Shown here: positions 912 to 50,620 of the stretch, one piece after another | How the letters are laid out: each line of letters begins with the position of its first letter | Position numbering within the stretch: the stretch's first letter is position 1 | Source: Dehalococcoidia bacterium | GTDB lineage: Bacteria > Chloroflexota > Dehalococcoidia > Bin125 | Direction of reading: 5' to 3' | Length of the DNA stretch: 64,000 bases | Assembly (NCBI GenBank): GCA_965221705.1 | Contig: OZ244908.1 | Span: 283,064-347,063 of the forward strand | Made by a program: the position numbers and the translations under genes | Notes under the pieces: model-generated | What the model saw: only the letters and a program-made list of their open reading frames with translations | What the model was told of the DNA's origin: nothing | The model's database searches: none

Positions 912-1178
912 TCTTCTCCTCTCCCCTCCCCTCCGTTCCCCTCTCCCCTCTGGTCCCCTCTCCCCTTCGGGGAGAGGGTTAGGGTGAGGGGGCTCCGCCA
1001 GTTGAGAGGGACCCTCACCCCAGCCCTCTCCCGGAGGGAGAGGGAGTAAGAGAGAAACCTCTCCTGGAGGGAGAGGGAGTGAGAGAGACCTCTCCTGAAG
1101 GGAGAGGGAGCAGGAAGTCCCCTTTCCCCTTTCTGATCCCCTCTCCCCTCTGGGGAGAGGGATAGGGTGAGGGGGCTC
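912..1178. repeat. Composite palindromic intergenic repeat, family 1 copy A. It carries internal 25-bp tandem sub-repeats 'cctctcctggagggagagggagtaagag'.
   Basis: Contains hairpin cccctctcccc/ggggagaggg, then ttagggtgaggggg…ccctcacccc. The same element recurs at 5.8, 9.1, 26.1, 34.7, 45.05, 46.8 and 50.6 kb. Confidence 0.8.
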
Positions 1179-1964
1179 CTAGCGGAACACAGGATCCCGC
1201 TTCTCAAAGAAGGCGGCCATGCCTTCTTTGGCCTCGGGACGACGCGCGGCGGCTGCGATCTCTCTCGTCTCAAGCTCCATCTGCGACTCCAGGCCCTCGC
1301 GCCAGGATGAGTGATAGAGCCGCTTGGCCGCGCCGATCGACTCGGTGGGCCCGGCCGCGAGCTGCGCGGCCAACGCTTGCGCCTCGGACTGCAACTCGTC
1401 GGCCGGCACGACCCGATTGACCAGTCCCCAGTTCTCGGCCTCCTGCGCCGAGAGCATGCGATTGGTCAGACAGAGTTCGAGCGAACGGCGCAGGCCGACC
1501 AGTCGAGGCAGGAAATAGGTCGAGGAACCGTCGGGCGTCAGCGCAATCCGCGAGTAGGCCATCGTGAAGCGAGCCGAATCGGCCGCGAGCGCGAGATCGC
1601 CGATCAGCGCTAGACTCATGCCCGCGCCGGCCGCTGTGCCGTTGATGGCGCAGATCATCGGCGCGTCCATGCGCGTGAAACGCGAGACCGCGGCGTGCAG
1701 ATACGTGGTTAACTCCTTGATTCGCGTCGACATCTCCGGACCGGCGGGCGGAAAGTCCTTGAGGTCGGCGCCAGCGCAGAACATGCGGCCCTCGCCGGTC
1801 AGGACGACGGCGCGCACCGACGGGTCCTCATCGACCCGAATCGACACGTCCATCAGTTCCCGGCCCATCTGCATCGTCAGCGAGTTGGCCGCCTCCGGCC
1901 GACGCAGCGTGATCGTCGCGACGCCGTCGGCTACCTCGTAGCCCATCGTTTCGTACTCGGACAC
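1179..1964 (-). CDS. Enoyl-CoA hydratase/isomerase (crotonase family)
   Basis: Crotonase-fold motifs are present (FCAGADL, oxyanion-hole region ICAINGTAAGAGMSLAL). 261 aa. Confidence 0.85.
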   Translation of the reverse strand: MSEYETMGYEVADGVATITLRRPEAANSLTMQMGRELMDVSIRVDEDPSVRAVVLTGEGRMFCAGADLKDFPPAGPEMSTRIKELTTYLHAAVSRFTRMDAPMICAINGTAAGAGMSLALIGDLALAADSARFTMAYSRIALTPDGSSTYFLPRLVGLRRSLELCLTNRMLSAQEAENWGLVNRVVPADELQSEAQALAAQLAAGPTESIGAAKRLYHSSWREGLESQMELETREIAAAARRPEAKEGMAAFFEKRDPVFR

Positions 1965-2051
1965 TGTTGGATTCCTTCGCTAGTGTGGACTCAGGCGAGC
2001 CGGCTCGCTCGCAGCGTACCGCTCGCTGACACGCCCACGAGGAGACGCCTG

Positions 2052-2825
2052 ATGACAGTAGCCGATACGCGCGATGTCAGGATCGATACGGTCCACGGCG
2101 AGCTGACCGCGGCGCTGGCCACACCGGACAACGATGCCGAACCCGCTCCCGGCGTGATCGTGCTGCACGAACTGTTCGGGCTCAACAACGACATACGGCG
2201 CATCACGCGCCGCTTCGCCGAGCACGGCTACGTCGCCCTGGCGCCGAATCTGTACTCCGTTGGACCTTGGCTCAGGCCGCTCTGCATTATGCAGACGATG
2301 AATCAGTTGCGCGCAGGCGAGGGTCGGTCGTTCGACGTGATCGAGTCGGCTCGCGCCTGGCTGGCGAGTCGCGACGACGTCGACGCAACGCGGCTCGCCG
2401 CCGCCGGATTCTGTTTGGGCGGCGGATTCGCGATGCTCTACGCGGCGCGCGCGCCGTTGGGCGCGGCGGCGGTGTTCTACGGACGCGCGCCGCGCAATGC
2501 GAACCGGCTCGATGGCATTTGCCCTGTGTACGGAGCGTTCGGCGAGCGCGATACGATCGCCGCCGGTCAGGCCGACCGCCTGAGAGGACACTTGGAGCAG
2601 CTGGGCGTCGAGCATGAGATCACGGTGTTTCCAGACGCCGGACACTCGTTCATGAGTCAGTACGACGGCATCCAGGGGTTCTTCGTCGAGCGATCGCGGC
2701 GGACGATCGGCTACCACGCCGAGTCCGCCGATCGGGCCTGGCCGGAGATGCTTGAGTTCTTTGCGCAACACCTCGGCCAGGTTCCCAGCGAAGAGTCGGG
2801 AACATCACACGAGGCCGATGCGTAA
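2052..2825 (+). CDS. Dienelactone hydrolase family protein (carboxymethylenebutenolidase-like)
   Basis: Has a GFCLGG nucleophile elbow and a catalytic His near the C-terminus (DAGHSF). The start is the ATG at 2052 inside the longer track ORF. Confidence 0.8.
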   Translation: MTVADTRDVRIDTVHGELTAALATPDNDAEPAPGVIVLHELFGLNNDIRRITRRFAEHGYVALAPNLYSVGPWLRPLCIMQTMNQLRAGEGRSFDVIESARAWLASRDDVDATRLAAAGFCLGGGFAMLYAARAPLGAAAVFYGRAPRNANRLDGICPVYGAFGERDTIAAGQADRLRGHLEQLGVEHEITVFPDAGHSFMSQYDGIQGFFVERSRRTIGYHAESADRAWPEMLEFFAQHLGQVPSEESGTSHEADA

Positions 2826-2882
2826 CGTTGGTAACCACAAATCGGCCGTGGCACGGGCGACGGCCAACAGGAGGAAACGAAG

Positions 2883-3770
2883 ATGAGCATCCACGCAATT
2901 CGCACAGTTCGAGTGACTGCCGGTCGGGCGCTGGCGTTGCTGGCCCTGACCGCGTCGCTCTTGACGATTGGCCTGCTCAGCGTCAGTGCGCAGTCGTCCG
3001 GCGAGGACGACGTCCCCACGCCCGTGCTGATCAGCGAGCCCGTAGAGGAGTCGTTGACCAAACTAACGATCGAAGGCTCAGCCGCTCGCAGCGTCAGCTA
3101 CGACGGCACGATCGGACGATTCACCGTCAGCGTGCTCGGATCGACAGTGCTCGAGGCGGTCTCGGAGGGCAACACCGCCGTCAACGCGATCGCCGACGCG
3201 GTGGCCGAGAACTGCACGGTCGACGAGCCCGAGACGGCCGATCACACCGCCGACCCCACATGCATCTCGCCGGAGGGTCTGCGCACGACGCGGATTCGAA
3301 TCTACGAAGAGTACGACTGGACCGAGCGCGGCCGCGTCTCGCAGGGATTCCGTTACGAGAACGGTCTGAGCATCGAGATTCGCGGCACCGGATTCGCCGG
3401 CGGACTGGTCGATCTGGTGATCCGCGCCGGCGGCAACCACGTCCGATTCGATGGTCTCGACTTCACCACGTCACGCCGCGCTGAGACTGAGCGTCTGACG
3501 CAGCTGGACGCCATCGACGACGCGCTCGCCCAGGCTGACTCGATCGCCTCGCACATGGGCTACGAAGTCGTGCGCATCGTCGAGGTCAACCCGCTGGGCA
3601 GTTTCACGCCGGGCGAGGTGCTGCGCGCCGAGGTTGAAGAGGCGGCCGCCGATTCGTCGGTTCCAACGCAGGTCTTCGCCGGCGGCGAGTCGATCAGCGC
3701 TCGCGTGCAGATCGTGTTCGAGCTGCGCGAACTGCCTCCGGCGCCGCCCGAGGAACCCGAGGCTGAGTAA
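2883..3770 (+). CDS. SIMPL (DUF541) domain secreted protein
   Basis: N-terminal signal peptide. The SIMPL-like core carries GYEVVRIVEVN. An AGGAGGAAACGAAG Shine-Dalgarno precedes the ATG. Confidence 0.65.
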   Translation: MSIHAIRTVRVTAGRALALLALTASLLTIGLLSVSAQSSGEDDVPTPVLISEPVEESLTKLTIEGSAARSVSYDGTIGRFTVSVLGSTVLEAVSEGNTAVNAIADAVAENCTVDEPETADHTADPTCISPEGLRTTRIRIYEEYDWTERGRVSQGFRYENGLSIEIRGTGFAGGLVDLVIRAGGNHVRFDGLDFTTSRRAETERLTQLDAIDDALAQADSIASHMGYEVVRIVEVNPLGSFTPGEVLRAEVEEAAADSSVPTQVFAGGESISARVQIVFELRELPPAPPEEPEAE

Positions 3771-3789
3771 CGCTACTGACTACTGGGCG

Positions 3790-5754
3790 CTAGCTCGCTG
3801 CGGCGGCGGCCTCGGCCTGCTGCCGCACTTGCTGCGCGACGTGCTCGGGCACCTGGTCGTAGCGCTCGAACTGCCAGCTGAAGGTGCCTCGACCGCCGGT
3901 CATCGAGCGCAGGTCCGTGGCGTAGTGCAGAAACTCCGCCATCGGACCTTCGGCGATCACAACCGACGCGCCAGGCGGTTCGTCCGCCGGCTCCATGCCC
4001 AACACCCGCGCGCGGCGCGAGTTGAGGTCGCTGATGATGTCGCCGGTCGACGATTCAGGCGCCGTGATCCGCAGCGAGTGCACCGGTTCGAGCAAAATCG
4101 GCCGCGCCGATGACACGCTCTCCTTGAGCGCCTGCGAGGCAGCCAGCTTGAAGGCCATCTCTGACGAATCGACATCGTGGTGCTTGCCGTCGTAGAGCGT
4201 CACGCGCAGGTCGGTGAGCGGGAACGCGCCGCGTGGCAGCGATTCGACGACGCCCTTCTCCACCGCCGGAATGTAGTTGCGCGGCACCGCGCCGCCGACG
4301 ATTTCGTCCTGGAACTCGAACCCGGCGCCGCGCGGTTGCGGCTCAACGCGCAGCGCGACGCGAGCGTACTGTCCGCTGCCGCCGGTCTGTTTCTTGTGCA
4401 GATACTCGGCCTGGCCGACGCTCGTGACCGTCTCGCGGTACGGGACGCGTCGATCCTTGATGTCGACCTCGACGTGGAACTTGCTCGCCAAACGACCAGC
4501 CGAGAGCTGCACGTGCGACTCGCTGAGACCGCTCAGGATCGTCTCGCCCGAGTCGCGGTCACGCTCGATCTGCAGCGTCGGATCGCTCTCAACCAGTCGC
4601 GCCAACGACGGCCCGAGCTTGTCGACATCGGCCTTGGTCTTGGGCTCGACGGCGGCTGCGAAGATTGGCGCTGGCATCGGCGGCTCGGGAACGAGCAGCG
4701 ACGATCCCTTGGCGCGCAGCGTGTTGAACGTCGTCGTGTGCTGCAGCTTGGTCACGACGCCGATATCGCCGACGCCCAACTCGCTGACGGCGGTCAGCGC
4801 CTTGCCGCTGGCGCGCGACAGGTTCGCCAGGCGTTCGTCCTCGCCCGTTTGGGCGTTGTCGAGGTGATCGTCGGAGTTGATCGCGCCTGACACGACGCGC
4901 AGATACGAGAGTCGACCGACGAACTCGTCGGCTGTGGTCTTGAACACGAACGCGCCGGCCTGGCCGTCGTCTTCGATGCCCTCGGCGATCGGCGGCGCCT
5001 CCGAAGGACTGGGCAGTACGTCGTTGATCAGGCGCAGCAGCTCGTCCGAGCCGACGCCCGCGGTCGCCGAGACCGGCAGCGCCGGCGCCAACGATCCAGC
5101 CAGCACCGCGGATTTCAGCGCGGCACGCAGGTCGTCCTCCTCGATCGCTTCGTCTTCCAGGTAGAGCATCATCAGGTCTTCGTCTGACTCGACGATCCGC
5201 TCGATTAGTCCATCGCGACCCTCGGCATCGGCGTCGCCGAGCACATCGACGAGCTCCGAGAACTCGGCCTCAGCGGCGTTCGGCAGGTACAGCGGCTGAC
5301 ACTCGGAACCGAGAATCGACTGCACCGACGCCAGCGCGTCATCGAACGACGAGTTCTCGCGGTCGAGTCGTGAGATCGCCACCGCGCGGGGAATGCCGCG
5401 CTTGCCCGCCATGCGCCAGACCGTCTCGGTGCCGACCTGCACGCCCGAGGAGGCGTCGACGACGACGATCACGGCATCGACGACGGCGACTGAGGCGACG
5501 ACCTCGCCGACAAAGTCGGCGTAGCCGGGGGTGTCGAGCAGGTTAAATCGCACGCCGTCGTGCTCGAGCGAGACGAGTGACGTCGAGATTGACATACCGC
5601 GCTGTTGTTCTTCGGCGTCGTGGTCTGAGATCGTGTTGCCTTCTTCGACGCGTCCCAGTCGCGTCGCCGCGCCGGTCGCCAAAGCCAGCGCCTCGACCAG
5701 CGTCGTCTTGCCCGATCCCTGGTGCCCAACCACGCCCACATTACGAACAGCCAT
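3790..5754 (-). CDS. Elongation factor G paralog (translational GTPase)
   Basis: G1 GHQGSGKTT, G3 DTPGYADF, plus EF-G domains II-V. At 654 aa it is shorter than canonical FusA. Confidence 0.85.
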   Translation of the reverse strand: MAVRNVGVVGHQGSGKTTLVEALALATGAATRLGRVEEGNTISDHDAEEQQRGMSISTSLVSLEHDGVRFNLLDTPGYADFVGEVVASVAVVDAVIVVVDASSGVQVGTETVWRMAGKRGIPRAVAISRLDRENSSFDDALASVQSILGSECQPLYLPNAAEAEFSELVDVLGDADAEGRDGLIERIVESDEDLMMLYLEDEAIEEDDLRAALKSAVLAGSLAPALPVSATAGVGSDELLRLINDVLPSPSEAPPIAEGIEDDGQAGAFVFKTTADEFVGRLSYLRVVSGAINSDDHLDNAQTGEDERLANLSRASGKALTAVSELGVGDIGVVTKLQHTTTFNTLRAKGSSLLVPEPPMPAPIFAAAVEPKTKADVDKLGPSLARLVESDPTLQIERDRDSGETILSGLSESHVQLSAGRLASKFHVEVDIKDRRVPYRETVTSVGQAEYLHKKQTGGSGQYARVALRVEPQPRGAGFEFQDEIVGGAVPRNYIPAVEKGVVESLPRGAFPLTDLRVTLYDGKHHDVDSSEMAFKLAASQALKESVSSARPILLEPVHSLRITAPESSTGDIISDLNSRRARVLGMEPADEPPGASVVIAEGPMAEFLHYATDLRSMTGGRGTFSWQFERYDQVPEHVAQQVRQQAEAAAAAS

Positions 5755-5826
5755 CGCAGAATCCTCCGAACCGACGCGCCAGATGTGACTCAGGTTAACT
5801 GATGCTCAGCGTGGGCCCACACGCCG

Positions 5827-6040
5827 ACCCTCTCCTTCTCGGATCCCCTCTCCCCTCGGGGAGAGGGTGAGGGTGAGGGGGCGCCCCGCCAACTTCGGAG
5901 GGACCCTCACCCCAGCCCTCTCCCTGGAAGGGAGAGGGAGTAAGAGGCCCCCTCTCCCTGGAAGGGAGAGGGAGTAAGAGGCCCCCTCTCTTTGGAAGGG
6001 AGAGGGGGTAAGAGAGGGGGAGGGTGAGGGGCGGCCCGCA
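5827..6040. repeat. Family 1 composite palindromic repeat, copy B, with 3 tandem sub-repeats
   Basis: Same hairpin architecture as 912-1178. Lies between the EF-G-like start and the recJ stop. Confidence 0.8.
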
Positions 6041-6054
6041 GGGGAGCAGTTGAG

Positions 6055-7764
6055 CTACACGGCGAGGTCGATGATCTCCAGCTCCGGTCGACCTTGTAGA
6101 CCTCGGCGCAGACGCCAGACCACATCGAGCTGCGATTGCACCTCGAGCGCGGCGCCGCCCAGACGCCAGCCGATTGCTGACCAGCCGTCGAGGTTGAGTC
6201 GCAGGTGCGCCTGGTCGGCGCCGACCGTCTTCGCCTCGCGCACGGCCACTCCCGTGCTGAGAAACGTGGGCGCGCGATTGCCCTCGCCGAATGGCGCCAG
6301 TCGCTCGATCCAGTCGACGGTCCGCCGCGTTACCGCTGAGAGCGGTACCTGCGCGTCGACGTCGAGCCGTCCCTCGAGCGCCGCCCAAGCGCCCGCCTCG
6401 CCCGCGTCGAGCTGCGCCTGCGCCGCCTCGTTGAGTCTCGCCATGAGCGGGCCCAACTGCGTCGGCTCCGCCGAGAATCCGGCCGCCATCGCGTGACCGC
6501 CGCCGCGTACGAGCAGATCGCGAGAGGCGTCGAGCATGCGCACCAGGTCGAATCCCGCCGCGCTGCGACCCGACGCGCGCGCTTCGCCGTCGACCAGCGA
6601 CCAGACGAAGGCCGGCCGCGACCACTGATCGGCGAGCCGTCCCGCGACGATGCCGACGATGCCGTGGTGCATCCCCTCGCCGCCGACGAACAACACCAGC
6701 GGCGCCTGTCCCGAGGCGTCGAGCTGAGCGCGAATCTGACCCTCGGCCTCGGCCATCGCATCGGCGGTGAGGCGGCGACGTTCGTCGTTAAGCCGCTCCA
6801 GCTGGCCGGCCAGCTCACGGGCCGCGTCGGGCTTCGTCTCGATCAGCATGTCGAGCGCCAATGAAGCATCGTCGAGCCGACCGGCGGCGTTGATCTTGGG
6901 CGCGAGCTGAAATCCGATCGTTTCAGCGTCAAGCGGGGCGGAGCCGCGACGTCCCTGCAGCAGGGCGCGCAGTCCGGGACGCGTCGTCGCCTGCAGCGCG
7001 CGCAATCCCTGATGCACAATCCACCGATTCTCGCCGCGCAGTGGCACGACATCGGCGACCGTCGACATCGCCGCCAGGTCGAGCCAGCGCTCTGGCTCGA
7101 CCGCGGCGCGGCGTCGCTCGACGACGGCGTGGGCGAATCGATACGCGAGTCCGCCGGTCGAGAGCTCGGAGAGTGGATGCCCAGTCGGCGCGAGCTTGGG
7201 CGTCACGATGGCGGTGGCATCGGGCAGCGAGTCGGCCGGTTCGTGATGGTCGAGCACGACGACATCGAGCCCGTGCTCGTCCCGCGCGGCGGCGATTTCG
7301 TTGAGCGCCGTGATCCCGCAGTCAGCCGTGATCAGCACCCGCGACCCGTCGGCGGCGAGCTTCGCGATGGCCGCGTCCTGCAATCCGTAGCCCTCGCGCT
7401 CGCGGTGCGGGATAAACGGCCGCGCGTCGATGCCGACTTCACGCAGCGCCTCGGTCAGGATCGCGGCGCCCGTGATGCCGTCGACGTCGTAGTCGCCGTA
7501 GATCGCGACCGGTTCGCCGCGGTCGGCCGCCGCGCTGATGCGCGAGACGGCCTCGTCCCAGTCGCCCAGTACCGACGGATTGGCTGGCTGGTACCAGTCG
7601 GGATTGAGGAACTCTTGCGCCGCCGGGACCGTGTCGACGCCGCGCTGTCGCAGCAATCTGCCGACGAATGACGGCGCGTCGAGGCCTTCGATCGGCGGCG
7701 CGTCGTGCGACTCGGCGACTCGCCAGGTGCGGCCAAGCCAACCGTCCGAGCGTTCGCGCACCAC
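6055..7764 (-). CDS. recJ: Single-stranded-DNA-specific exonuclease RecJ
   Basis: DHH motifs (AIYGDYDVDGITG, DHHEP) and a DHHA1 region. 569 aa. Confidence 0.85.
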   Translation of the reverse strand: MVRERSDGWLGRTWRVAESHDAPPIEGLDAPSFVGRLLRQRGVDTVPAAQEFLNPDWYQPANPSVLGDWDEAVSRISAAADRGEPVAIYGDYDVDGITGAAILTEALREVGIDARPFIPHREREGYGLQDAAIAKLAADGSRVLITADCGITALNEIAAARDEHGLDVVVLDHHEPADSLPDATAIVTPKLAPTGHPLSELSTGGLAYRFAHAVVERRRAAVEPERWLDLAAMSTVADVVPLRGENRWIVHQGLRALQATTRPGLRALLQGRRGSAPLDAETIGFQLAPKINAAGRLDDASLALDMLIETKPDAARELAGQLERLNDERRRLTADAMAEAEGQIRAQLDASGQAPLVLFVGGEGMHHGIVGIVAGRLADQWSRPAFVWSLVDGEARASGRSAAGFDLVRMLDASRDLLVRGGGHAMAAGFSAEPTQLGPLMARLNEAAQAQLDAGEAGAWAALEGRLDVDAQVPLSAVTRRTVDWIERLAPFGEGNRAPTFLSTGVAVREAKTVGADQAHLRLNLDGWSAIGWRLGGAALEVQSQLDVVWRLRRGLQGRPELEIIDLAV

Positions 7765-9117: not shown

Positions 9118-9270
9118 CTGGTCCCCTCTCCCCTTGGGGGAGAGGGTGAGGGGACCGCGCGCAGACCTCAAGGAGGTATGGGACCCTCACCCCAGCCCAC
9201 TCCCAGAGGGAGAGGGAGCCGGAAGTTCCCTCTCCCCACCGGGGAGAGGGTTAGGGTGAGGGGGCCCTGC
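9118..9270. repeat. Family 1 composite palindromic repeat, copy C
   Basis: cccctctccccttgggggagagggtgagggg … ccctcacccc … ccctctccccaccggggagagggttagggtgaggggg. Confidence 0.8.
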
Positions 9271-12395: not shown

Positions 12396-12483
12396 GCATG
12401 ACGGGTACCGCTTGAGTGCATGACGGGTACCGCTTGAGTGCATGACGTGTACCGCCTGAGCGTATGACGCGTACCGCTTGGCG
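12396..12483. repeat. Four tandem copies of a 22-bp unit (gcatgacgggtaccgcttgagt) in the acpS/folD divergent intergenic region
   Basis: Units fall at 12396-12417, 12418-12439, 12440-12461 and 12462-12483, with increasing degeneracy. The array ends 17 bp before the folD ATG. Confidence 0.85.
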
Positions 12484-12499: not shown

Positions 12500-13396
12500 A
12501 TGACAGCGACGATCATCGACGGCGCGGCCATCGCCGGCGGCATCCGCGAGGCGCTCACCCGTCAGGTCGACGACATGATCGCGGGCGGTCTCCTGCCGCA
12601 CCTGGCGGTGTTGCTCGTCGGCGACGATCCAGCCTCGGCCTCATACGTGCGCAGCAAAGTGCGCGCCGGCGAACAGACCGGCATCAAGGTCGTGATTCAC
12701 CGCATCGAGGCTGACCTCGATCCCGCGCAGACCGAGCGACGAGTTCGTGATCGGATCGATCTGCTCAACGCCGACGTCGATGTCCACGGCATCATCCTGC
12801 AGTTGCCGCTGCCCGAGCGCGTTGACGTCGACACGCTGCTCGACCGCATCGATCCGCTCAAAGACGTCGACGGCCTGCATCCGACGAATCAGGGACGCAT
12901 CCTGCAAGGGCGAGAACGCTACCTGCCGGCGACGCCGCACGGCGTGCAACAGCTGCTCGTCCGCAGCGGCGCCGATCCTGGCGGCAAGCACGTCGTGATC
13001 GTCGGACGCAGTCGACTCGTCGGCATGCCGCTCGCCGCCATGCTGGCGCAGAAGCGGCAGGGCGCGAACGCCACCGTCACGATCTGCCACACCAACACCA
13101 CTGACCTCGCCGCGATTGCGAGACAGGCCGACATTGTCGTCGCCGCGACCGGTCGGCCGGGGACGATCACGGCCGACATGGTTCGTCCGGGCGCGACGGT
13201 GATCGATGTCGGCGTCAACCGCGTCGACGACGCGTCGCGGACACGCGGCTACCGCCTGGTCGGCGACGTCGACTTCGATTTCGTGTCCGAGGTCGCGGGC
13301 GCGATCACGCCGGTCCCGGGCGGCGTCGGCCCGATGACCGTGGCGATGTTGCTCAACAACGTCACCCGAGCGGCGCGGATCGCGCAGCGCCGCTAG
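12500..13396 (+). CDS. folD: Bifunctional methylenetetrahydrofolate dehydrogenase/cyclohydrolase
   Basis: YVRSK…, VGRS.LVG.P…, C and PGGVGPMT motifs. 298 aa. Confidence 0.9.
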   Translation: MTATIIDGAAIAGGIREALTRQVDDMIAGGLLPHLAVLLVGDDPASASYVRSKVRAGEQTGIKVVIHRIEADLDPAQTERRVRDRIDLLNADVDVHGIILQLPLPERVDVDTLLDRIDPLKDVDGLHPTNQGRILQGRERYLPATPHGVQQLLVRSGADPGGKHVVIVGRSRLVGMPLAAMLAQKRQGANATVTICHTNTTDLAAIARQADIVVAATGRPGTITADMVRPGATVIDVGVNRVDDASRTRGYRLVGDVDFDFVSEVAGAITPVPGGVGPMTVAMLLNNVTRAARIAQRR

Positions 13397-14910
13397 CGCT
13401 CTCGGCGCGGCGACAGGACTCGAACCAGCAACAGTCCGCTGAGCAAGACCAAGGCGCCGGCGATGCCGATCAGCGGGTACTCCCAAGGGAACGGCCCCGC
13501 GACCTCGAAGACCGGCCCCGACCGTCGCTCATCCTGCCGACGCTGAATCTCCGCCTGTCGCTCGGCGATCTCGTCGTCCGTGCGACCCGCGGCGGACGCC
13601 TCGACTTGCTGGTCGTCCTCTTCGATCACGTCCTCGTTCGACGCCTCGTCCTGCGCTGAGTCGGCATCGTCAGGCTGCGCCTGCGTTGACTCATCCGATT
13701 GTGTCGGCTCGGCGTCATCGCCGGCGATCTGCGGGCCTGAAATCACATCGTCCTCGATCGCCGTTGAGCGGTCGGCCTCCTCCTCGCGCGGACCCAGTCC
13801 AACCGAGTCGCGCCAGGCATTGTCCAGCTCATCGCGCGTCAGTCCGTAGACGTTGCTCAGCGCGTCCTCGACAGTGGAGCCATTCTTGAACGTCCTGAAC
13901 AGCGCATTCATCTGTTCGGCGCCGTACTCCTGGATCAGGAAGCTGACGATCGCCGCCGACTGTCCGTAGAAGATGTCGACGAAGCCCGGTTGGTTCGACG
14001 GCGACTCCATGCTGCGCAACGACAACACGAGGTCGTTGTTGATCGCATACTGCAGGGCGCCGCCGCGCCGATTCAGCCAGTCGCCCTCGGCGATCGTCGC
14101 CATCCCCTCGTCGAGCCAGGCCGGCAGGTCGCCGTACGGACCCTCGCCCGCGAGCTTAGTCAGCACGTGGGTCAACTCGTGCCGCACCACCCAGCGCGAG
14201 GGCTGGTAGATGTGCACCAGATCGGCCAGGACTCGCGTGCCGCCGGTGATCACCGACTCTTCGAACCGTTCCGACTGGATCCGTTCGACCTCGCGCGCGT
14301 CGGCGCTGTTGGCCCAGACGTAGACCTTGATCGGAATCAGCTCGTCCAAGCCGAGGAAGGGTGAGATCTCTTCCAGCGCCTCCAGGCCCTCTTCGAGCAT
14401 CGACCGGGCGATGCCGTCGTCGTCGTACCAGGCGATTTCGAGGTTGTTGCGCTCGATCGACTGCCATTCGAATCGCGGATCTTCGTATCGCCAAATCTGC
14501 GGATCGGTCTCGAACCGCTCACCGTTGGCGTCGACGAACTCCCAACGCCACTCAAAGTCCGCGCCGGCTGGAATCCAGAGTCTCGGATTGCGGGTTGGGA
14601 ACTCCGCCCGCACTCGAGTCACGTCACCCTCGAGAATCTCGGCCGCCTCACGCGTCAACGCGCCCTCAGGCAGGATCGCGTAGAGAAAGGTCGCCGACTC
14701 AATCTCCGAGCCGCTTTCGACCAGCGCCGTCACGACGACGGAGTCGGGCCACGAGTTCTCAAACCGCGTGCCCTGCACCGACGGCGATTCAATCGACTGC
14801 GCCGCAGTCGTCCCGCTGTCCATCCAGCTACTCGCGAAGACAGTCAACAACACGGCCGCCGCTATGGCTGCGAGCGTCGCCGGTTTGAATCGTGGGGCAG
14901 TCAATGTCAT
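13393..14910 (-). CDS. Putative secreted or membrane-anchored zinc metallopeptidase (HExxH, Peptidase_MA-like). It has an acidic linker and a C-terminal TM helix.
   Basis: Signal peptide present. Motifs HELTHVL and a downstream EGMA…E. A D/E-rich region is followed by a hydrophobic C-terminus. The start (ATGA) overlaps the prfB stop. Confidence 0.5.
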   Translation of the reverse strand: MTLTAPRFKPATLAAIAAAVLLTVFASSWMDSGTTAAQSIESPSVQGTRFENSWPDSVVVTALVESGSEIESATFLYAILPEGALTREAAEILEGDVTRVRAEFPTRNPRLWIPAGADFEWRWEFVDANGERFETDPQIWRYEDPRFEWQSIERNNLEIAWYDDDGIARSMLEEGLEALEEISPFLGLDELIPIKVYVWANSADAREVERIQSERFEESVITGGTRVLADLVHIYQPSRWVVRHELTHVLTKLAGEGPYGDLPAWLDEGMATIAEGDWLNRRGGALQYAINNDLVLSLRSMESPSNQPGFVDIFYGQSAAIVSFLIQEYGAEQMNALFRTFKNGSTVEDALSNVYGLTRDELDNAWRDSVGLGPREEEADRSTAIEDDVISGPQIAGDDAEPTQSDESTQAQPDDADSAQDEASNEDVIEEDDQQVEASAAGRTDDEIAERQAEIQRRQDERRSGPVFEVAGPFPWEYPLIGIAGALVLLSGLLLVRVLSPRRER

Positions 14911-32962: not shown

Positions 32963-32968
32963 CGGCCG

Positions 32969-36388: not shown

Positions 36389-37377
36389 CAGAATCGCTGC
36401 ACTTCGGCGTTGATGCGGTCGAGCGCCAGCTCGCGGTACGACTGATCGATCTCGATGCCGTACGCACGGCGTCCATTCCGCAGCGCCGCGACCAGGGTGC
36501 TGCCGCTGCCCGCGAACGGGTCCAGCACCCGGTCGCCTCGATACGAGAACAACCTGATGCAGCGGCGCGGCAGCTCGAGCGGAAACGGCGCCGGATGACC
36601 AATCCGCTTCGCCGACTCTCCGCCGAATGTCCAGATCTGCGACGCCCACTCTCGCGCCGCTTCAGGGTCCAGCCCGTCAAGCCCCGGGCCTCGCGGGCGC
36701 GTCAGCAGCTCCGCAAACGACTCGCGCAGCTCGTCAACGCGCAGCGGCGAGGCGCCGTCGAACGACATCGCCCAAGCCAACAACTGCGTCGGAGCGATCA
36801 GCGGCTCTGGCGGCGTCGCGGTATCGTTCTCGGCCGGTTGATCCTGGTGCTCGCTCCACACCCCCGAGGTCCACTCCATGAACTCGTCGCGCTCGATCGT
36901 GACCCGCTCGTCGCCCAGGTGCTCGCGATTCCACTGCTCCTTGTAGAGCACGACGATCGTCTCGACCGGCGCAATCACGTGCGGCGCCGACGGCCGCATC
37001 CAGCTGCCCCACGCCGTGCGCCGCGAGATGTTGCCCTCGTTCCAGATGATCGTCGCGTGATACCGCCAACCGACCTCGCGCGCGATGTTGGTCAGGTCGG
37101 CCGTCACGGCCTGCTTGCCGCCGCTGTTCTTGTCCAGCGGGATGTTCATGCAGAGCCGACCGCGCGGCGCCGTCCAGCGGAAGCAGTTGGCCAGCCACTT
37201 ACGGCTGAACTCCAGATAGGCCTCGTACGAGCCGGCGTCATCGACGCCGTCGCCGTAGCTCAGGCCGACGTTGTACGGCGGCGACGTGACGGTCAGCTGG
37301 AAGCAGTCGTCGTCGAACAGCGACGGGTCAGTCGCGTCGCCCAGCCGCAGCTGCTCGGGGTTGAAGAGGGCGGTCAC
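36388..37377 (-). CDS. DNA methyltransferase, beta-class N6-adenine/N4-cytosine (motif IV SPPY before motif I)
   Basis: TSPPY (motif IV) near the N-terminus and DPFAGSGST (motif I) near the C-terminus. GTG start at 37377. Confidence 0.8.
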   Translation of the reverse strand: MTALFNPEQLRLGDATDPSLFDDDCFQLTVTSPPYNVGLSYGDGVDDAGSYEAYLEFSRKWLANCFRWTAPRGRLCMNIPLDKNSGGKQAVTADLTNIAREVGWRYHATIIWNEGNISRRTAWGSWMRPSAPHVIAPVETIVVLYKEQWNREHLGDERVTIERDEFMEWTSGVWSEHQDQPAENDTATPPEPLIAPTQLLAWAMSFDGASPLRVDELRESFAELLTRPRGPGLDGLDPEAAREWASQIWTFGGESAKRIGHPAPFPLELPRRCIRLFSYRGDRVLDPFAGSGSTLVAALRNGRRAYGIEIDQSYRELALDRINAEVQRF

Positions 37378-37421: not shown

Positions 37422-37443
37422 GGGGGGGGGGGGGGGGGGGGGG
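37422..37443. repeat. Homopolymeric poly-G tract (22 nt) in the divergent region between the MTase-1 start and the PD-(D/E)xK nuclease start
   Basis: G run 37422-37443. About 45 nt upstream of the MTase-1 GTG (as poly-C on that strand) and about 117 nt upstream of the nuclease ATG. Confidence 0.9.
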
Positions 37444-37559: not shown

Positions 37560-38690
37560 ATGCCTCCTTCAAAGCTGCTCGATCAGGCTAAAGAGGATCT
37601 GCTGGTCCAGCTCTATCTGGACTGGGGCGGCGGTTTTCCCGACGACCACATGGCCGACATCATCAAGGAGTTTGTCGCCTCGTTCCCAGATCTCAATGTC
37701 CAGCAGCAGAACTCGCTCTGGGGCCGAGCCTTCCAAAAGCTGATGGAGCTGCTCTTCGAGGACCGGGTGAAGGCGCTCAACGCCGCGCATGGACTCTCGT
37801 TGCGTTGGACACGCGACACCGAGCTAGGTCGGCAGCAACCTGGCGAGCAACTGGAGCGCGTCAAGCGCAACTTGCTCGTCGACTACGGCGAGTACGGTTG
37901 TCACCTGCCCGACGCCGACTTCGTCGTCTACCGCGAGGAGAATCACGCCATTGTCTGCGTCCTCTCCTGCAAGACTTCGCTGCGCGACCGTATGAAGCAG
38001 ACGGCGTACTGGAAACTGAAGCTATTGCAGAGTCCGATCACGACGCACGTTCGTTACTGTCTGCTGACTCTGGATAAAGACGGCGACCTTGTTTCCGACC
38101 AACCGCCGTACAAGAAGAACTACGCAATCGCCAACATCGACTTCGATGCAACGTACGTCCTGCGCGATGACTTAACGCCCAACGATCGCATCAAGGGCTT
38201 TAGCAGCTTCGAAAACGACGTACTGTCATGGTTGGGGGGGGGGGGGGGGGGTGAGCGATCACCTCTCCCGGCAAGCGCTCAGACTTGCCGAACAGTATCA
38301 ACGGGCGCTCGATGCCCGCAAGACGCTCCGAGCGTACAAACGCGGCGCGCACCTCTTCGGCGATCCCGACACCGCCTACGACAACGCGACCAAGGACCTG
38401 GCCGATATCCGCCAACGCATGCGCACGCTGGAGCGCCAGCTCAACGACGCCGCCGGCATCGAGCTCAAGCCGGACATCGAAGCGACCACGTTGTGGGACT
38501 TCCCCACGCAGTCGTACGGTTCGACGCCCAAGGGCGACAGCCGCTATCAGGGCGTGACGCCGGCGTTCATCATCTACAACATGCTGCAGCGCTACACCGA
38601 ACCCGGCGATCTGGTGCTCGATCCGATGTGCGGCTCTGGCACCACGATCGATGTCTGCCGCGAAGAACAGCGTCAAGCAATCGGATATGA
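37560..38690 (+). CDS. Putative type II restriction endonuclease (PD-(D/E)xK-like). The real C-terminus is probably near 38250. The ORF as sequenced has no stop before the poly-G and reads out of frame into the MTase-2 gene.
   Basis: LPDADFVVY…VLSCK candidate PD…(S/E)xK catalytic region. GC is ~58%, below the ~68% background. The ORF continues through a GGGGGG-encoding poly-G into +1-frame nonsense overlapping MTase-2. Confidence 0.45.
   Translation: MPPSKLLDQAKEDLLVQLYLDWGGGFPDDHMADIIKEFVASFPDLNVQQQNSLWGRAFQKLMELLFEDRVKALNAAHGLSLRWTRDTELGRQQPGEQLERVKRNLLVDYGEYGCHLPDADFVVYREENHAIVCVLSCKTSLRDRMKQTAYWKLKLLQSPITTHVRYCLLTLDKDGDLVSDQPPYKKNYAIANIDFDATYVLRDDLTPNDRIKGFSSFENDVLSWLGGGGGGERSPLPASAQTCRTVSTGARCPQDAPSVQTRRAPLRRSRHRLRQRDQGPGRYPPTHAHAGAPAQRRRRHRAQAGHRSDHVVGLPHAVVRFDAQGRQPLSGRDAGVHHLQHAAALHRTRRSGARSDVRLWHHDRCLPRRTASSNRI
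38234..38251. repeat. Homopolymeric poly-G tract (18 nt) at the nuclease/MTase-2 junction
   Basis: G run 38234-38251. The MTase-2 GTG start begins at the last G. One extra G (19) would create a TGA stop for the nuclease gene, overlapping the GTG (GTGA). Confidence 0.9.
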
Positions 38691-42715: not shown

Positions 42716-43315
42716 TTAGCCCTTGTTGGACTCGTCAGAGCCATCCTGAGTGGCGACGAGATCGATCCGCATCTGCCGTTGATTAACCTCGCCGTTGCCC
42801 TGATATCGCGGCCGATACTCCGACTGCCGCCCTTGAATCTGAGCCGTGTGCATGCGGTCGTGCCGATAGAACGATCGCAGCCACTGCATCAGAGTCAGTT
42901 CCCCGAACGCCTGCGTCGAGGCCGTGTGCGCGAACTCGTCCAACGTCAACGAGTTGATGAACTCAATCGTGCCCGCCCGCTCCGTGATCAGCGCGTCGAG
43001 CAATTCCCGCACCGAGTGTCGGGGCGCTTCCTGAATCGGGATGGCGACCGGTTCGCCGCGAATGCCGGTCGCGTCGACGCCGCTCTCGACCCGTCCCGCT
43101 CGACACCATGCGATGTAGCCGCGCTCCATCTCCCACAGGTGCGAGAGCTGCTCTTTCGCCGTCCACTGTTCCTCGCCGACGGCGTCGACCGGAACATGAT
43201 TGGCGTCGTCGTCGCTCAAGCCCTCGGCGGCGGCCAACAGCTTGGAGCGCTCATTCGCCATCTTCTCCAACAGCGACTCGACATCGTCTTGGGTGTACGA
43301 CACGGTCTCAGTCAT
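42716..43315 (-). CDS. DinB-family protein (DinB_2-like four-helix bundle), paralog 1
   Basis: LSHLWEMERGY… and …FYRHDRMHTAQI His-containing motifs. The ATG overlaps the stop of paralog 2 (ATGA). Confidence 0.5.
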   Translation of the reverse strand: MTETVSYTQDDVESLLEKMANERSKLLAAAEGLSDDDANHVPVDAVGEEQWTAKEQLSHLWEMERGYIAWCRAGRVESGVDATGIRGEPVAIPIQEAPRHSVRELLDALITERAGTIEFINSLTLDEFAHTASTQAFGELTLMQWLRSFYRHDRMHTAQIQGRQSEYRPRYQGNGEVNQRQMRIDLVATQDGSDESNKG

Positions 43316-43818
43316 GTTGCGATCCCTTCGCCCCGCGCGGCGCATTGCATCTGATCCAGGTGCGCGAGATCATGCTCGATGCTGCGATGCACCAGAATCT
43401 CGACGCTGTACTGATCGCGCTCTTCGTGTCGACCCTCGCGCGACCATTCCGATGGTTCGAGCCGTTCGACGATCTCGGCGTTCGATGCCCGCAGCGAAGC
43501 AAAGATAGCGAGCGACGACTCCAGCGGGCGTTCGTAGTGCAGGCGTTGCGCAAACAAAGTCTCGTCGTAGGCGACGATCAGCGGGGCATCGTGCGCGATC
43601 ATCATCCGCAGACGCATCGCATCGCCGACCTCAACGTCGGCCAGATGATGCACGATCTCGCGTACGCGCCACTCGCCCTTTGACTCGCGCAGTTCATGGA
43701 CGGATTCGCCGGGCTTGGCGAGCCAGTCGTTGATCTGCAGCACCGTCTCCCGATACCGCCCGAGCAGGGCCAAACGTTCGGAGTCGACCATCAGGCTTCG
43801 CCCGATCGCTGTCAGCAA
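43312..43818 (-). CDS. DinB-family protein, paralog 2
   Basis: IVHHLADVEV… and HDLAHLDQM motifs. Confidence 0.55.
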   Translation of the reverse strand: MLTAIGRSLMVDSERLALLGRYRETVLQINDWLAKPGESVHELRESKGEWRVREIVHHLADVEVGDAMRLRMMIAHDAPLIVAYDETLFAQRLHYERPLESSLAIFASLRASNAEIVERLEPSEWSREGRHEERDQYSVEILVHRSIEHDLAHLDQMQCAARGEGIAT

Positions 43819-44303
43819 GTGCCGGTGAGGGCGAATCGAATCTGGTCGACGTGCTCCTCAATGTGGCGCACGTTCGCCGCCAACCACTCTTCGACGCTGC
43901 GCGAGCTGGCGCCGGGCATCGGTCGAGGCTGCGTCCACTCGTCCTCGCGCAGCGCAGCCAGGATTGACATCGCCGACTCGACCAATGCCTCGAACGTGTG
44001 CAGCGCGGGCGTGATCGGCCGTCGATCGTTGCGCAGACGACGCTGCATCACGTCTTGATCGAGCGGCCAGTACTCGACTTCGATGTCGAGCAGCATCATG
44101 CGCAGCCGCAGCGCGCCCATGATGGCGATGTCGGAGACGTGATGGACGTTCTCCCGCGCCGTCCAGCCGGGCTCGGGCGGAGCGCCGTCGAGCTGCGCCA
44201 TCGAAGCCCCCGCGACCGACGCCGCGAGCAGTTGCGGCGCCTCCTTGTAACGGTTCAGCAACTCAGTGCGACTGGTCGTCGTCATCGTCCGAGCAAGCGC
44301 CAC
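43812..44303 (-). CDS. DinB-family protein, paralog 3
   Basis: ENVHHVSDIAIMG… and HIEEHVDQI motifs. Overlaps paralog 2 by 7 nt. Confidence 0.55.
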   Translation of the reverse strand: MALARTMTTTSRTELLNRYKEAPQLLAASVAGASMAQLDGAPPEPGWTARENVHHVSDIAIMGALRLRMMLLDIEVEYWPLDQDVMQRRLRNDRRPITPALHTFEALVESAMSILAALREDEWTQPRPMPGASSRSVEEWLAANVRHIEEHVDQIRFALTGTC

Positions 44304-44982: not shown

Positions 44983-45046
44983 GGGCTCAGGCTACCGCAG
45001 AGTGAGATACACGCGGCATGCGCGGGTATGACGAACCTGCGAGACC

Positions 45047-45090
45047 TCTCCGCCCGACGGGGTGAGGGTGAGGGGGCCTCCGGCCCCGTA
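45047..45090. repeat. Family 1 repeat fragment (ggggtgagggtgagggggcctccggcccc)
   Basis: A partial copy of the ggtgaggggg arm, downstream of the HAD gene. Confidence 0.5.
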
Positions 45091-45092
45091 GC

Positions 45093-46809: not shown

Positions 46810-46850
46810 CGGCCCCTCACCCCAACTCTCTCCCCGCCGGGGAGAGGGAA
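46810..46850. repeat. Family 1 repeat, short copy (ccctcaccccaactctctccccgccggggagaggg)
   Basis: The ctctcccc/ggggagag hairpin preceded by the ccctcacccc arm. Confidence 0.6.
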
Positions 46851-46977
46851 CTGGATGCTCGTCATACCCGCGCTTGCCGCAAGTATCTCTCCGCGTCGAC
46901 CTCTGACCTCCGGCACAGCGAGATGGCCTTGGCGGAGCACGGCCATGACGTCGTAGATGCGCGCCCGACAGGCCACA

Positions 46978-48265: not shown

Positions 48266-48497
48266 TTCTGATGCTGAAAGCCCTTCGCCGCCGACTCCCC
48301 CGGTGCCATCCTTCAACGTGAACGTGATCAACTCGCCAGAAACAACCTCCGCGAGTTCGAGCAATGCTCGCCAGACCGCGATCTTCGGATTTCAGCTGGG
48401 AAAGACCGAAACGAGACTCGTCGCCTGGAGCTTGCTTGTTCTGAGTTTCGTCAACGTGATCTTTGGCGGTCTGAGGCTGGTCGGCATCGGCGGGTAG
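48258..48497 (+). CDS. Small hypothetical membrane protein (79 aa)
   Basis: C-terminal hydrophobic helix (LVAWSLLVLSFVNVIFGGLRLVGIGG). Translationally coupled to the preceding ORF. Confidence 0.3.
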   Translation: MPDSDAESPSPPTPPVPSFNVNVINSPETTSASSSNARQTAIFGFQLGKTETRLVAWSLLVLSFVNVIFGGLRLVGIGG

Positions 48498-48547
48498 CGT
48501 TCCATAGCTAGCGGCCAGAGTAGACAAGTAGGGACGAGGACAACGCG

Positions 48548-50530
48548 ATGACCTCCGCCGACGCATCCATGCCGACCACTGAGACGTACTCTCCGCCCGA
48601 TCGCGTCCGCGAGGGCGCGCTAGTGACGTCGCGAGAGGGATACGAAGCGCTCTGGCGACGCTCCCTCGACGAGCCCGAGGCGTTCTGGACCGAAATGGCC
48701 TCTGAGCATCTTGATCTTGTCGAACCGTGGCGCACGCTCAAAGAAGAAGACCTCACTTCAGGCCAGATCGCCTGGTTCCTGGGCGCCAAGCTCAATGTCT
48801 CAGTCAACTGCCTCGACCGGCACCTCGAGTCGCGCGGCGACCAAACCGCCATCCTCTGGGAGGGCGACGAACCGGGCGACAACCAGTCGATCAGCTATCG
48901 CGAGCTGCACGCCGAAGTCTGCCGGCTGGCCAACGAGCTGCGCAGCCGCGGCGTCGGCAAGGGCGATCGCGTCGCCATCTACATGGGCATGACGCCCGAG
49001 GTCGTGGCGGCGATGCTCGCTTGCGCGCGTATCGGCGCGATTCACTCCGTGATCTTCGGCGGATTCTCCGCCTCGGCGATCGCCGATCGCGTCACGGACT
49101 CGCTCTGCAAGGCGATCATCACCCAAGACGAAGGCAAGCGCGGCGGCCGCACCGTGCCGCTGAAAGCCAACGTCGACGCCGCGCTCGACCAGCTCGACGC
49201 CAACGGCGTCGATTGCGTCGAGTTTGTGCTCGTCCATCAGCACACGTCCGGCGACGTCACCATGCGCGACGGCCGCGACATCTGGTGGCACGAAACGGTC
49301 GCCCGACAGTCGGACGAGTGCGAACCGGAAGTGATGGACGCGGAAGATCCGCTGTTCATCCTCTACACCTCAGGTTCAACCGGCAAACCCAAGGGAGTCC
49401 TCCATACGCAGGCGGGATATCTACTCTTCACAATGCTCAGCCATCGCTACACCTTCGACTACCGCGATGGAGACATCTACTGCTGCGCTGCCGATGTTGG
49501 TTGGATCACCGGACACAGCTACATCGTCTATGGACCGCTCGGCAACGGCGCCACGAGCGTCATGTTTGAATCGATTCCGACCTATCCCGACGCCGGCCGC
49601 TACTGGGACATGATCGATCGCCTGGGGATCAACATCCTCTACACCGCGCCGACGGCGATTCGCGCGCTGATGCGCGAAGGCGACGAATGGGTCAAGAATC
49701 ATCAACGCACCAGCCTGCGCGTCCTCGGCACGGTCGGAGAGCCGATCAATCCCGAGGCCTGGCGCTGGTACTTCGATGTCGTCGGCGAGGGCCGCTGCAG
49801 CATCGTCGACACGTATTGGCAAACGGAAACCGGCGGACACGTACTGACTGGTCTCGCTGGCGCCAACGACATGAAGCCCGGCTCCGCCTCGCTACCCTTC
49901 TTCGGCGTCGAGCCGGTCTTGGTCGACCCCGAGGGCAACCAGCTTGAGGGCAATCAGCAAAGCGGCCTGCTCTGCATCGCTCGCAGCTGGCCCGGGATGA
50001 TGCGCACGGTCTACGGCGACCACGAGCGCTTCATCAACACCTACTTCATTCAGTATCCCGGCAAGTACTTCACCGGCGACGGCGCCTATCGCGATCACGA
50101 CGGCTACTACTGGCTCACTGGACGCGTTGATGACGTGCTCAACGTCTCGGGCCATCGACTGGGCACGGCCGAGATCGAAGGCGCGCTCGTCGGACACGCC
50201 GGCTGCGCCGAGGCGGCTGTCGTCGGGTATCCGCACGACATCAAGGGTGAGGGCATATACGCGTACGTACTGCTCAAGGACGGCTTCGACGCAGGACCCG
50301 ACCTCGCCGTCGAGCTCAAGCGTCAGGTGCGTGCCGAGATTAGCCCGATCGCGACGCCCGACAAGATTCAGTTCGTCGGCGGACTGCCCAAGACGCGTAG
50401 CGGCAAGATCATGCGCCGCATCCTGCGCAAGGTCGCCGAAGGCGAACCGGAAAACGTCGGCGACGTCACCACACTCGCCGAACCGCACGTCGTCGAAGAG
50501 ATCATCGAAGGCGCATCCCAGGCCCACTGA
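48548..50530 (+). CDS. acs: Acetyl-CoA synthetase (AMP-forming acetate--CoA ligase)
   Basis: [17 protein letters not shown]-binding motif and the conserved C-terminal Lys ([11 protein letters not shown]). 660 aa. Confidence 0.9.
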
Positions 50531-50577
50531 TGCTATTTCGCACGCCAGTCTGACATGGCGAGCGCGAAATCGACTTC

Positions 50578-50620
50578 CAGTCCCCTCTCCCCGTTGGGGA
50601 GAGGGCTAGGGTGAGGGCCC
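50578..50620. repeat. Family 1 repeat, short copy (cccctctccccgttggggagagggctagggtgaggg)
   Basis: The hairpin cccctctcccc/ggggagaggg plus a partial second arm, immediately after the acs stop. Confidence 0.7.

Follow-up and report, generated by a model that had tools for sequence, protein, structure and literature searches.

Short intergenic repeats of the BoxC family have been described from Escherichia coli under several names (PMC4666352, PMC5100583, PMC2267715) and are the closest counterparts of the repeats reported here from a Chloroflexota genome. Holder et al. (2015) defined the intrastrand triplex motif TM_ECO, CCCTCNCCC-N3-6-GGGNGAGGG-N3-GGGNGAGGG, and equated it with BoxC of the 1990s and with the PIT elements of Hoyne and Maher (PMC4666352). 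E. coli MG1655 carries 23 copies of the motif, all intergenic and of types A (TTA) and B (CCG), which are divided between the strands without bias (13 plus, 10 minus) and include five inverted pairs, each made of one A and one B unit (PMC4666352). Across 262 proteobacterial genomes 3610 copies were counted, with a maximum of 143 in Enterobacter asburiae LF7a; the loci are far more variable among E. coli strains than control intergenic regions, the copy number in these strains ranges from 1 to 29, and the motif is absent from Salmonella (PMC4666352). Kaplan et al. (2016) described the same sequences as the G-quadruplex-hairpin switches HPG1 and HPG2, 13 copies of which share the exact sequence GGGAGAGGGTTAGGGTGAGGG (PMC5100583), and Petrillo et al. 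(2008) listed BoxC among the stem-loop families of E. coli. We analyzed a 64,000-nucleotide stretch of a Dehalococcoidia bacterium (assembly GCA_965221705.1, contig OZ244908.1, positions 283,064 to 347,063), hereafter the window, in which a dense family of GC-rich palindromic repeats occupies gaps between genes. Judged by their sequence, these repeats can be firmly assigned to the BoxC/PIT/TM_ECO family as its Chloroflexota members. To our knowledge, no function or spreading mechanism of BoxC has gained acceptance in about thirty years.

Tripartite units and inverted pairs in the window

The initial annotation had listed nine intergenic copies of a composite palindromic repeat, and the repeat is present at all nine sites. 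Exact patterns occur in the window far more often than in our controls, which were dinucleotide shuffles: CCCTCTCCC-N2-8-GGGAGAGGG has 13 matches against a shuffle mean of 0.00, GGGTGAGGG has 19 against 0.40, and GGGAGAGGG has 33 against 0.61. A unit profile built from ten copies and run with nhmmer (E<1e-7 for a full unit) yields 15 full tripartite units, nine on the plus and six on the minus strand, confined to eight intergenic gaps; over the 64 kb it finds no unit beyond these gaps. By arrangement there are five inverted pairs and four solo units, besides one remnant and additional hairpin units in arrays. The features are given below with the evidence for each; tandem arrays were detected with Tandem Repeats Finder (TRF), and the strict TM_ECO pattern is specified in the next section.

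926-970, plus strand: 17-nt C-arm half unit CTCCCCTCCGGTCCCCT, 2.6 tandem copies, leading into the first element (TRF, sequence)
950-995, plus strand: type A tripartite unit CTGGT-CCCCTCTCCCC-TTCG-GGGAGAGGG-TTA-GGGTGAGGGGG (nhmmer E=5e-15, strict TM_ECO pattern)
1007-1050, minus strand: type B unit with CTG in loop 2, forming a full palindromic element with 950-995 (strict pattern, nhmmer, alignment)
1025-1110, plus strand: array of 31-nt hairpin units CCTCTCC-TGGA-GGGAGAGG-GAGTAAGAGAGAAA, 2.7 copies (TRF)
1133-1178, plus strand: solo type A unit, 5 nt from the stop codon of the enoyl-CoA hydratase (ECH) gene (1179-1964, minus strand) (strict pattern, nhmmer)
5842-5883, plus strand: type A unit in which the hexamer TGAGGG is duplicated, GGGAGAGGGTGAGGGTGAGGGGG (strict pattern, nhmmer)
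5899-5944, minus strand: type B unit pairing with 5842-5883 in the gap between recJ and the EF-G-like gene (strict pattern, nhmmer, alignment)
5916-6014, plus strand: array of 34-nt hairpin units CCCTCTCCC-TGGAA-GGGAGAGGG-AGTAAGAGGCC, 2.9 copies with 95% matches (TRF)
9118-9152, plus strand: type A unit with contracted G-rich part GGGGAGAGGGTGAGGGG (nhmmer)
9180-9220, minus strand: type B unit with one mismatch, pairing with 9118-9152 in the gap between the tautomerase-like gene and fabF (nhmmer)
9224-9267, plus strand: solo type A unit directly after the 9118-9220 element (strict pattern, nhmmer)
26050-26150, plus strand: full palindromic element in a convergent-gene gap, with type A at 26050-26094, an 18-nt spacer and type B at 26106-26150 (strict pattern, nhmmer, folding)
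26288-26395, plus strand: second full element of the same gap, with type A at 26288-26332 and type B at 26353-26395 (strict pattern, nhmmer, alignment)
34717-34752, plus strand: degenerate solo type A unit GGGGAGAGGGCTAGGGCGGAGGG, 3' of a nitronate monooxygenase-like gene (nhmmer)
45045-45079, plus strand: remnant consisting of a decayed C-arm and GGGTGAGGGTGAGGGGG (weak nhmmer match, E=0.036)
46811-46852, minus strand: solo type B unit between rhodanese and GmrSD_C-like genes (nhmmer; unchanged in a 99.3%-identical strain)
50579-50622, plus strand: solo type A unit beginning 48 nt past the acs stop codon (strict pattern, nhmmer; unchanged in the 99.3%-identical strain)

The basic unit of about 40 nt consists of a T, the C-arm CCCCTCTCCCC, a first loop of 3-5 nt, the G-arm GGGGAGAGGG, 3 nt forming the second loop, and a second G-arm GGGTGAGGGG. 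The nine plus-strand units are of type A, with TTA in loop 2 (variants ATA, TGA and CTA), and the six minus-strand units are of type B, with CTG in loop 2 and TTCCA in loop 1. A full element is an inverted pair: type A is followed after a spacer of 18-30 nt by type B on the opposite strand, and then by one to three tandem hairpin units of 31-34 nt. All five pairs (950/1007, 5842/5899, 9118/9180, 26050/26106 and 26288/26353) join an A to a B unit; loop 2 is TTA or TGA on the A side (contracted in 9118) and always CTG on the B side. The five full copies have a common spacer, GCTCCCCGCAAACCTCGGA, and the common flanks CTGAT and AGTMAG, and therefore what is repeated in this genome is the pair in its entirety; as far as sequence comparison goes, the pair spacer is lineage-specific. 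The initial annotation had resolved the architecture into three successive hairpins. The repeat itself is real, but an inverted pair of tripartite units, able to fold also as one hairpin of about 37 bp, describes it more aptly. With Watson-Crick pairing only, the pair at 26050-26150 forms this hairpin as an RNA single strand at -74.6 kcal/mol (z=-6.2), and folds as DNA at -33.5 kcal/mol. The long hairpin of the pair contains a conserved A/C mismatch, where TTA lies opposite CAG. The unit sequence contains the three blocks of the triplex, and GGGAGAGGGTTAGGGTGAGGG has four G3 tracts.

Slippage products are apparent in and around the units. Besides the tandem arrays, the RGAGGG hexamer is gained or lost in the G-rich part at 5859-5880, 9138-9152 and 45060-45074, and also at 18739-18765 of a neighbouring locus in a sister strain (L432), where the hexamer expansion reads GGGAGAGGGAGAGGGAGAGGGTGAGGGTGAGGGG. 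The view that the copies vary in length and number of sub-repeats, and form a REP-like (repetitive extragenic palindrome) intergenic family, is confirmed. Some copies had been placed directly on gene ends, which holds for the ECH stop at 1179 but not for the acs stop at 50530. In an independent assembly of the 99.3%-identical strain (ENA ERZ26695499 contig_22), the copies at 46811 and 50579 are unchanged. The copy numbers lie far above the shuffled expectation, the sequences vary from copy to copy, and copies reappear in an independently made assembly, which rules out chance low complexity as well as an assembly artefact or duplication; identical duplications had been considered initially, and the copies are non-identical. 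The repeats also create spurious open reading frames (ORFs), as had been proposed: 25951-26319 (plus strand) yields ...IPSPLGERVRVRG..., and 818-1273 (minus strand) yields ...SPLTLSLSPEGRGD.... Such 'GERVRVRG / SPLTLSLSP' frames are of practical concern, as they can mislead gene callers and searches for G-quadruplex (G4) or triplex motifs.

Relation to E. coli BoxC and occurrence across bacteria

The strict TM_ECO pattern, run in a somewhat loosened form (2-8 nt allowed in loop 1 and 2-4 nt in loop 2), matches the window ten times, seven on the plus and three on the minus strand, with about zero matches expected from shuffles. The exact E. coli HPG1 21-mer GGGAGAGGGTTAGGGTGAGGG is present in four copies (units starting at 956, 9228, 26056 and 26294). 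A blastn search with positions 26040-26165 (126 nt) gave matches in 5362 of 5426 complete E. coli genomes, at a median of 13 places, with an aligned length of 108 nt (86% of the query) and 79-83% identity; every match lies in unannotated intergenic sequence. In a MAFFT alignment the window element matches the fepB-entC BoxC pair of E. coli end to end, the TGGAA and CAG loops included; the spacer, which is unrelated, is the sole differing part. The strictly intergenic placement typical of the family is found here as well: all units lie in the eight gaps between ORFs supported by their third-codon-position GC content or by Pfam. The initial suggestion of a miniature inverted-repeat transposable element (MITE) specific to this genome is rejected, as the BoxC/PIT/TM_ECO family is known from E. 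coli and its core is found in many phyla. Rfam gives no match at gathering thresholds in the whole window; sub-threshold matches belong to eukaryotic microRNA precursor models and were rejected as generic long-hairpin matches.

With E. coli BoxC the window repeats have in common the tripartite pattern, the identical 21-mer and the inverted pairs of type A (TTA) and type B (CTG/CCG) with a variable spacer. Both are strictly intergenic, rarely found between divergent genes and variable among relatives, and neither has an associated transposase, in the window as far as the roughly 50 proteins scanned show. The differences begin with the host, a metagenome-assembled genome (MAG) of Chloroflexota rather than a proteobacterium or cyanobacterium. 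The local density is about 230 units per Mb in the 64-kb window, compared with 23 units per genome in MG1655 (about 5 per Mb) and 143 in E. asburiae LF7a (about 30 per Mb; both densities are our conversions). The stems here are perfect over 11 bp, whereas a central G/A mismatch is common in E. coli; tandem arrays of 31-34-nt hairpins are added; and a single strand orientation is common to all copies, which is not seen in E. coli.

To follow the core beyond these two hosts, one genome per GTDB species (596 Gb) was scanned for exact occurrences of GGGAGAGGGNNAGGGTGAGGG. At least 120 matches are listed, where about 4 are expected by chance (19 fixed bases in 596 Gb; our calculation). By record title, the matches listed come from at least roughly 14 phyla, although some of the records are MAGs, in which contamination is possible: Pseudomonadota, Cyanobacteriota, Planctomycetota, Chloroflexota, Binatia, Acidobacteriota, Myxococcota, Nitrospirota, Thermodesulfobacteriota, Actinomycetota, Rhodothermota, Omnitrophota, Elusimicrobiota and Calditrichota. 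Among 126 matches listed, 84% have a matching C-arm 2-9 nt upstream, a partner arm follows downstream in 30%, and 14% make up full pairs; in 93% of the 104 listed matches from other phyla the base before the C-run is a T. A separate scan for the hairpin only found a third G-arm beside 54% of 140 hairpins, compared with about 0.2% expected, and therefore the three-block unit is the conserved entity. Holder et al. mention neither Chloroflexi nor any other phylum outside proteobacteria and cyanobacteria, and report no plasmid association (PMC4666352). BoxC-type matches are present in 450 PLSDB plasmid records, 83 of them conjugative; by genus these include 111 Klebsiella, 79 Rhizobium, 60 Sinorhizobium and 46 Azospirillum records.

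Phages were rejected as carriers, with matches in only 5 of 50,697 curated phage records, some of them doubtful. Matches exist in IMG/VR, many of which may represent provirus or host flanks. On one IMG/VR contig with 67% GC (L394, positions 1660-7030), a variant element occurs four times within 10 kb; its inner GGGTGAGGG...CCCTCACCC palindrome and the outer CCCTCTCCC/GGGAGAGGG hairpins are about 23 nt apart, and each copy ends roughly 10-25 nt before GGAG and an ATG start codon.

Genomic placement and turnover among relatives

The genes flanking the repeats are housekeeping genes, among them those for enoyl-CoA hydratase and an EF-G paralogue, recJ, fabF, acs and mfd. All eight loci lie in gaps with at least one gene 3' end; they occupy 8 of the roughly 10-13 such gaps and none of the eight divergent ones (Fisher p about 0.001-0.006, our calculation). 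Five loci stand behind minus-strand genes and three behind plus-strand genes. Type A occupies the plus strand at each of the eight loci, and likewise at a ninth one in the 99.3%-identical sister strain (p about 0.004 if the loci are independent). Orientation relative to the flanking genes, a point raised initially, proves uniform by strand across loci and independent of the direction of transcription: it tracks the chromosome strand. The ninth locus, L432 18709-18860, lies about 4.7 kb past the right end of the window in a convergent-gene gap and holds a full element with an expanded G-rich part (AGAGGG three times, TGAGGG twice) and two to three tandem hairpin units.

We compared the window with four syntenic loci from relatives, 21.7 kb each, obtained by protein search and contig look-ups, with RecJ 71-85% identical; a RecJ scan of metagenomes returned only relatives at or below 43% identity, without usable synteny. 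All four keep the gene order yjeF, tautomerase-like, fabF, recJ, EF-G, ..., ECH. No unit is present in their gaps between recJ and EF-G, between tautomerase and fabF, and downstream of ECH, except for one decayed copy after ECH in L203. The strict pattern matches ten times in the 64-kb window, compared with 2, 0, 0 and 0 times in the relatives; the first 17 kb or so of the window, which is its portion syntenic with them, holds five strict units and eight by the profile. One relative, L202, has a full pair of its own with a different, 50-nt spacer, located between genes that are only 6 nt apart in L203 and running opposite to the window elements with respect to the conserved gene order. As the four syntenic relatives have no elements at the same gaps, the elements must have been gained or lost recently, and presence/absence differences from relatives are borne out at three orthologous gaps and by the independent gain in L202.

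Several further features of the region were observed. A second, unrelated hairpin repeat, CGTCATACCCGCGCTTGCCGCGGGTATCTC, occurs at 878-907 (minus), 45004-45033 (minus) and 46860-46889 (plus) of the window, three copies with none expected, all of which have a BoxC-type locus at a distance of about 25 nt or less; it is also found at L202 3923-3952, and in a relative it is placed in gaps without BoxC units. It resembles the GTCATTCCCGCGAAGGCGGGAATCC hairpins of the Dehalococcoidia loci L010, L020 and L083. Just upstream of folD (12500-13396, plus strand), in the gap that separates it from the divergent acpS, stand four tandem 22-nt units GCATGACGGGTACCGCTTGAGT with 90% matches (12396-12480). A run of 22 G at 37422-37443 lies in the divergent gap between a DNA methylase gene (36388-37377, minus strand) and a BsaWI-like restriction endonuclease gene (37560-38690, plus strand), which is followed by a second methylase ORF; the run could be a phase-variable tract of the restriction-modification system or a long-read homopolymer error. 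The release-factor gene at 14907-16130 (PCRF and RF-1 domains) starts at profile position 28 and is preceded by about 250 nt of apparently non-coding sequence, a start in keeping with the programmed +1 frameshift of prfB. At 32552-33229, a small ORF upstream of a PIN-domain gene probably forms a VapBC-type toxin-antitoxin pair with it, three DinB_2 paralogues stand in tandem at 42716-44303, and a tRNA-like sequence is found in the sister strain at about L432 17250-17330.

Possible mode of spread and competing explanations

Several known repeat systems resemble the window elements. REP sequences, their bacterial interspersed mosaic elements (BIMEs) and the REPIN-RAYT systems are likewise short GC-rich extragenic palindromes with inverted doublets and mosaic clusters, located at gene 3' ends and in convergent gaps, lineage-specific in sequence and expanded in bursts in some genomes. 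REPIN doublets are mobilised by RAYT (Y1) transposases. The window repeats differ in having YTGAT or YTGGT as their 5' flank instead of a GTAG-type tetranucleotide, and no RAYT was found nearby; REP sequences vary between genera, whereas the window modules are near-identical across phyla, and REPs have no third G-rich arm. Bacterial MITEs such as ERIC/IRU, Correia/NEMIS and RUP also measure about 100-150 nt and are non-coding, intergenic and multi-copy, with long terminal inverted repeats and presence/absence polymorphism. By contrast, no target-site duplication, a feature expected of a MITE, was found at the ends of the nine copies aligned, nor when the L202 insertion was set against the 6-nt gap of L203, with boundaries blurred by divergence; no parent insertion sequence with matching ends was found, and solo half units are conserved as well as full ones. 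Pfam identifies no transposase among about 50 window proteins scanned or among 130 ORFs flanking units in other phyla, and in the latter set no Pfam family is enriched.

We regard the chances as evenly balanced that the repeats are a non-autonomous, non-coding, structure-forming selfish element, copied as a whole inverted pair within the lineage. The pair, spacer included, would be copied into gaps with a gene 3' end, where the harm would be small, and would afterwards expand, contract and decay locally by slippage and deletion, with slippage producing the arrays of 31-34-nt hairpins, the addition and removal of hexamers and the solo units. The source of this instability would be single-strand structures, a 37-bp hairpin or cruciform in pairs and a hairpin, purine triplex or G-quadruplex in solo units, which would probably be recognised by the copying process as well. 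The window would then record a repeat burst in this lineage. In favour of this reading are the spacer and flanks common to the five full copies, the turnover among relatives, the slippage products, the relatives in which the same gene ends bear no significant hairpin, the lack of a transposase among the proteins scanned, and the published variability of TM_ECO loci in E. coli (PMC4666352). We infer that the pair is copied whole, passes through a single-stranded intermediate and brings the host no benefit.

Several observations speak against such selfish copying. The ~40-nt modules are near-identical between E. coli and Chloroflexota while their spacers are unrelated, a combination that fits neither selfish copying nor any of the alternatives below well; for purely selfish DNA such near-identity is difficult to account for, and a conserved recogniser or strong constraint on structure would be required. 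The uniform orientation of the nine loci and the avoidance of divergent gaps could reflect a function. No mobilising enzyme was found among the window proteins or the flanking ORFs elsewhere, and we know of none for the family. Neither a target-site duplication nor a sharp insertion boundary can be defined, the relatives' gaps being too diverged, and the 99.3%-identical strain displays no insertion polymorphism at the two copies compared. The initial proposal that the element is active in this genome has only indirect support; the two copies comparable in the 99.3%-identical strain show no polymorphism.

The placement of all eight loci in gaps with a gene 3' end, and of none in the eight divergent gaps, would also be expected if the repeats acted at the RNA level as 3'-end hairpins, either as terminators independent of a U-tract or as barriers to 3'-to-5' exonucleases that stabilise upstream mRNAs. 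The latter role has been proposed for REP/BIME elements. The great stability of the folded pair, the unit 5 nt from a stop codon and the presence of other GC-rich hairpins at the same places in some relatives (z -3.5 and -4.75) are in line with this explanation, and Rho-independent terminators similarly consist of a GC-rich hairpin shortly 3' of a stop codon. On the other side, the orthologous gene ends of several relatives lack a significant hairpin (z 0.06, 0.8, 0.8 and -0.4), the orientation follows the chromosome strand rather than transcription (five loci against three), and a plain hairpin has no need of the conserved third G-arm. The terminator function suggested initially receives no support: no U-tract was found after the hairpins, which are far longer than termination requires; terminator-like sites number 4 in 12 kb against 4.3 expected, with only one overlapping a repeat unit; and Hoyne and Maher (2002), as cited by Holder et al., found no promoter or terminator activity in E. 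coli (PMC4666352). On balance we consider an RNA-level role unlikely.

The unit contains precisely those three blocks that a C:G*G triplex requires, and its conserved third G-arm supports a structural role in DNA. In such a role, the host would keep the repeats as a triplex, a G4/hairpin switch or a cruciform that pauses replication, seeds recombination or serves as a topological or regulatory switch. The triplex is stable in vitro according to circular dichroism (CD) as well as nuclear magnetic resonance (NMR) (PMC4666352), and the sequence with four G3 tracts gives both hairpin and G4 signatures by CD (PMC5100583). The excess of third G-arms in the hairpin-only scan (54% against about 0.2%), the conservation of modules but not of spacers across phyla, and the single orientation of nine out of nine loci, which suggests a strand-asymmetric DNA process, add to this argument. 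Yet in vivo dimethyl sulfate footprinting in E. coli and CD and NMR of the double-stranded form gave no sign of a triplex, and no strand bias exists there (13 plus, 10 minus; PMC4666352), with about 10 copies leading and 6 lagging by our reading of the table of Kaplan et al. (PMC5100583). Within pairs, moreover, the third arm has a perfect Watson-Crick partner, and the 37-bp hairpin should outcompete a triplex or G4. The elements are missing at orthologous sites in close relatives, and no link to gene function was found either in the E. coli study (PMC4666352) or among the 130 flanking ORFs. A host-kept DNA structure thus seems to us quite improbable. Alternatively, the modules might be sites for a DNA- or RNA-binding protein of the host, widely conserved and of the nucleoid, repair or topoisomerase type, and the repeats would spread because they bring that site along. 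Conservation from E. coli to Chloroflexota extends to the loops TTA, CTG and TGGAA and to the T before the C-run (93%), and the A/C asymmetry of the long hairpin distinguishes type A from type B. We know of no such protein. Kaplan et al. found no match of the motif to any known transcription-factor motif (PMC5100583), and a range of 1 to 29 copies across E. coli strains together with absence from Salmonella fits an essential site poorly. We consider this the least probable of the explanations, one we strongly doubt.

The repeat family itself is already known; what is new is the phylum and the high density. The host lies far outside the Proteobacteria and Cyanobacteria from which the family was described, the local density exceeds the published record several-fold, E. 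coli and Chloroflexota have both module types with their loops in common but not the spacer, and close relatives have no elements at the same sites. This presence/absence contrast makes the agent that copies the elements accessible to testing by comparative genomics. Rather speculatively, BoxC-type units across bacteria may be one mobile or horizontally spread DNA element, whose ~40-nt ends would be kept near-constant, in Enterobacteria as in Chloroflexota, over about 14 phyla and also on conjugative plasmids, by a widely conserved host or plasmid enzyme recognising the A/C-asymmetric hairpin on single-stranded DNA. If so, the uniform orientation of the nine loci would be the footprint of replication-coupled, strand-specific insertion, and the contrast between this dense lineage and relatives with few or no elements would offer a way to find the enzyme by phylogenetic profiling.

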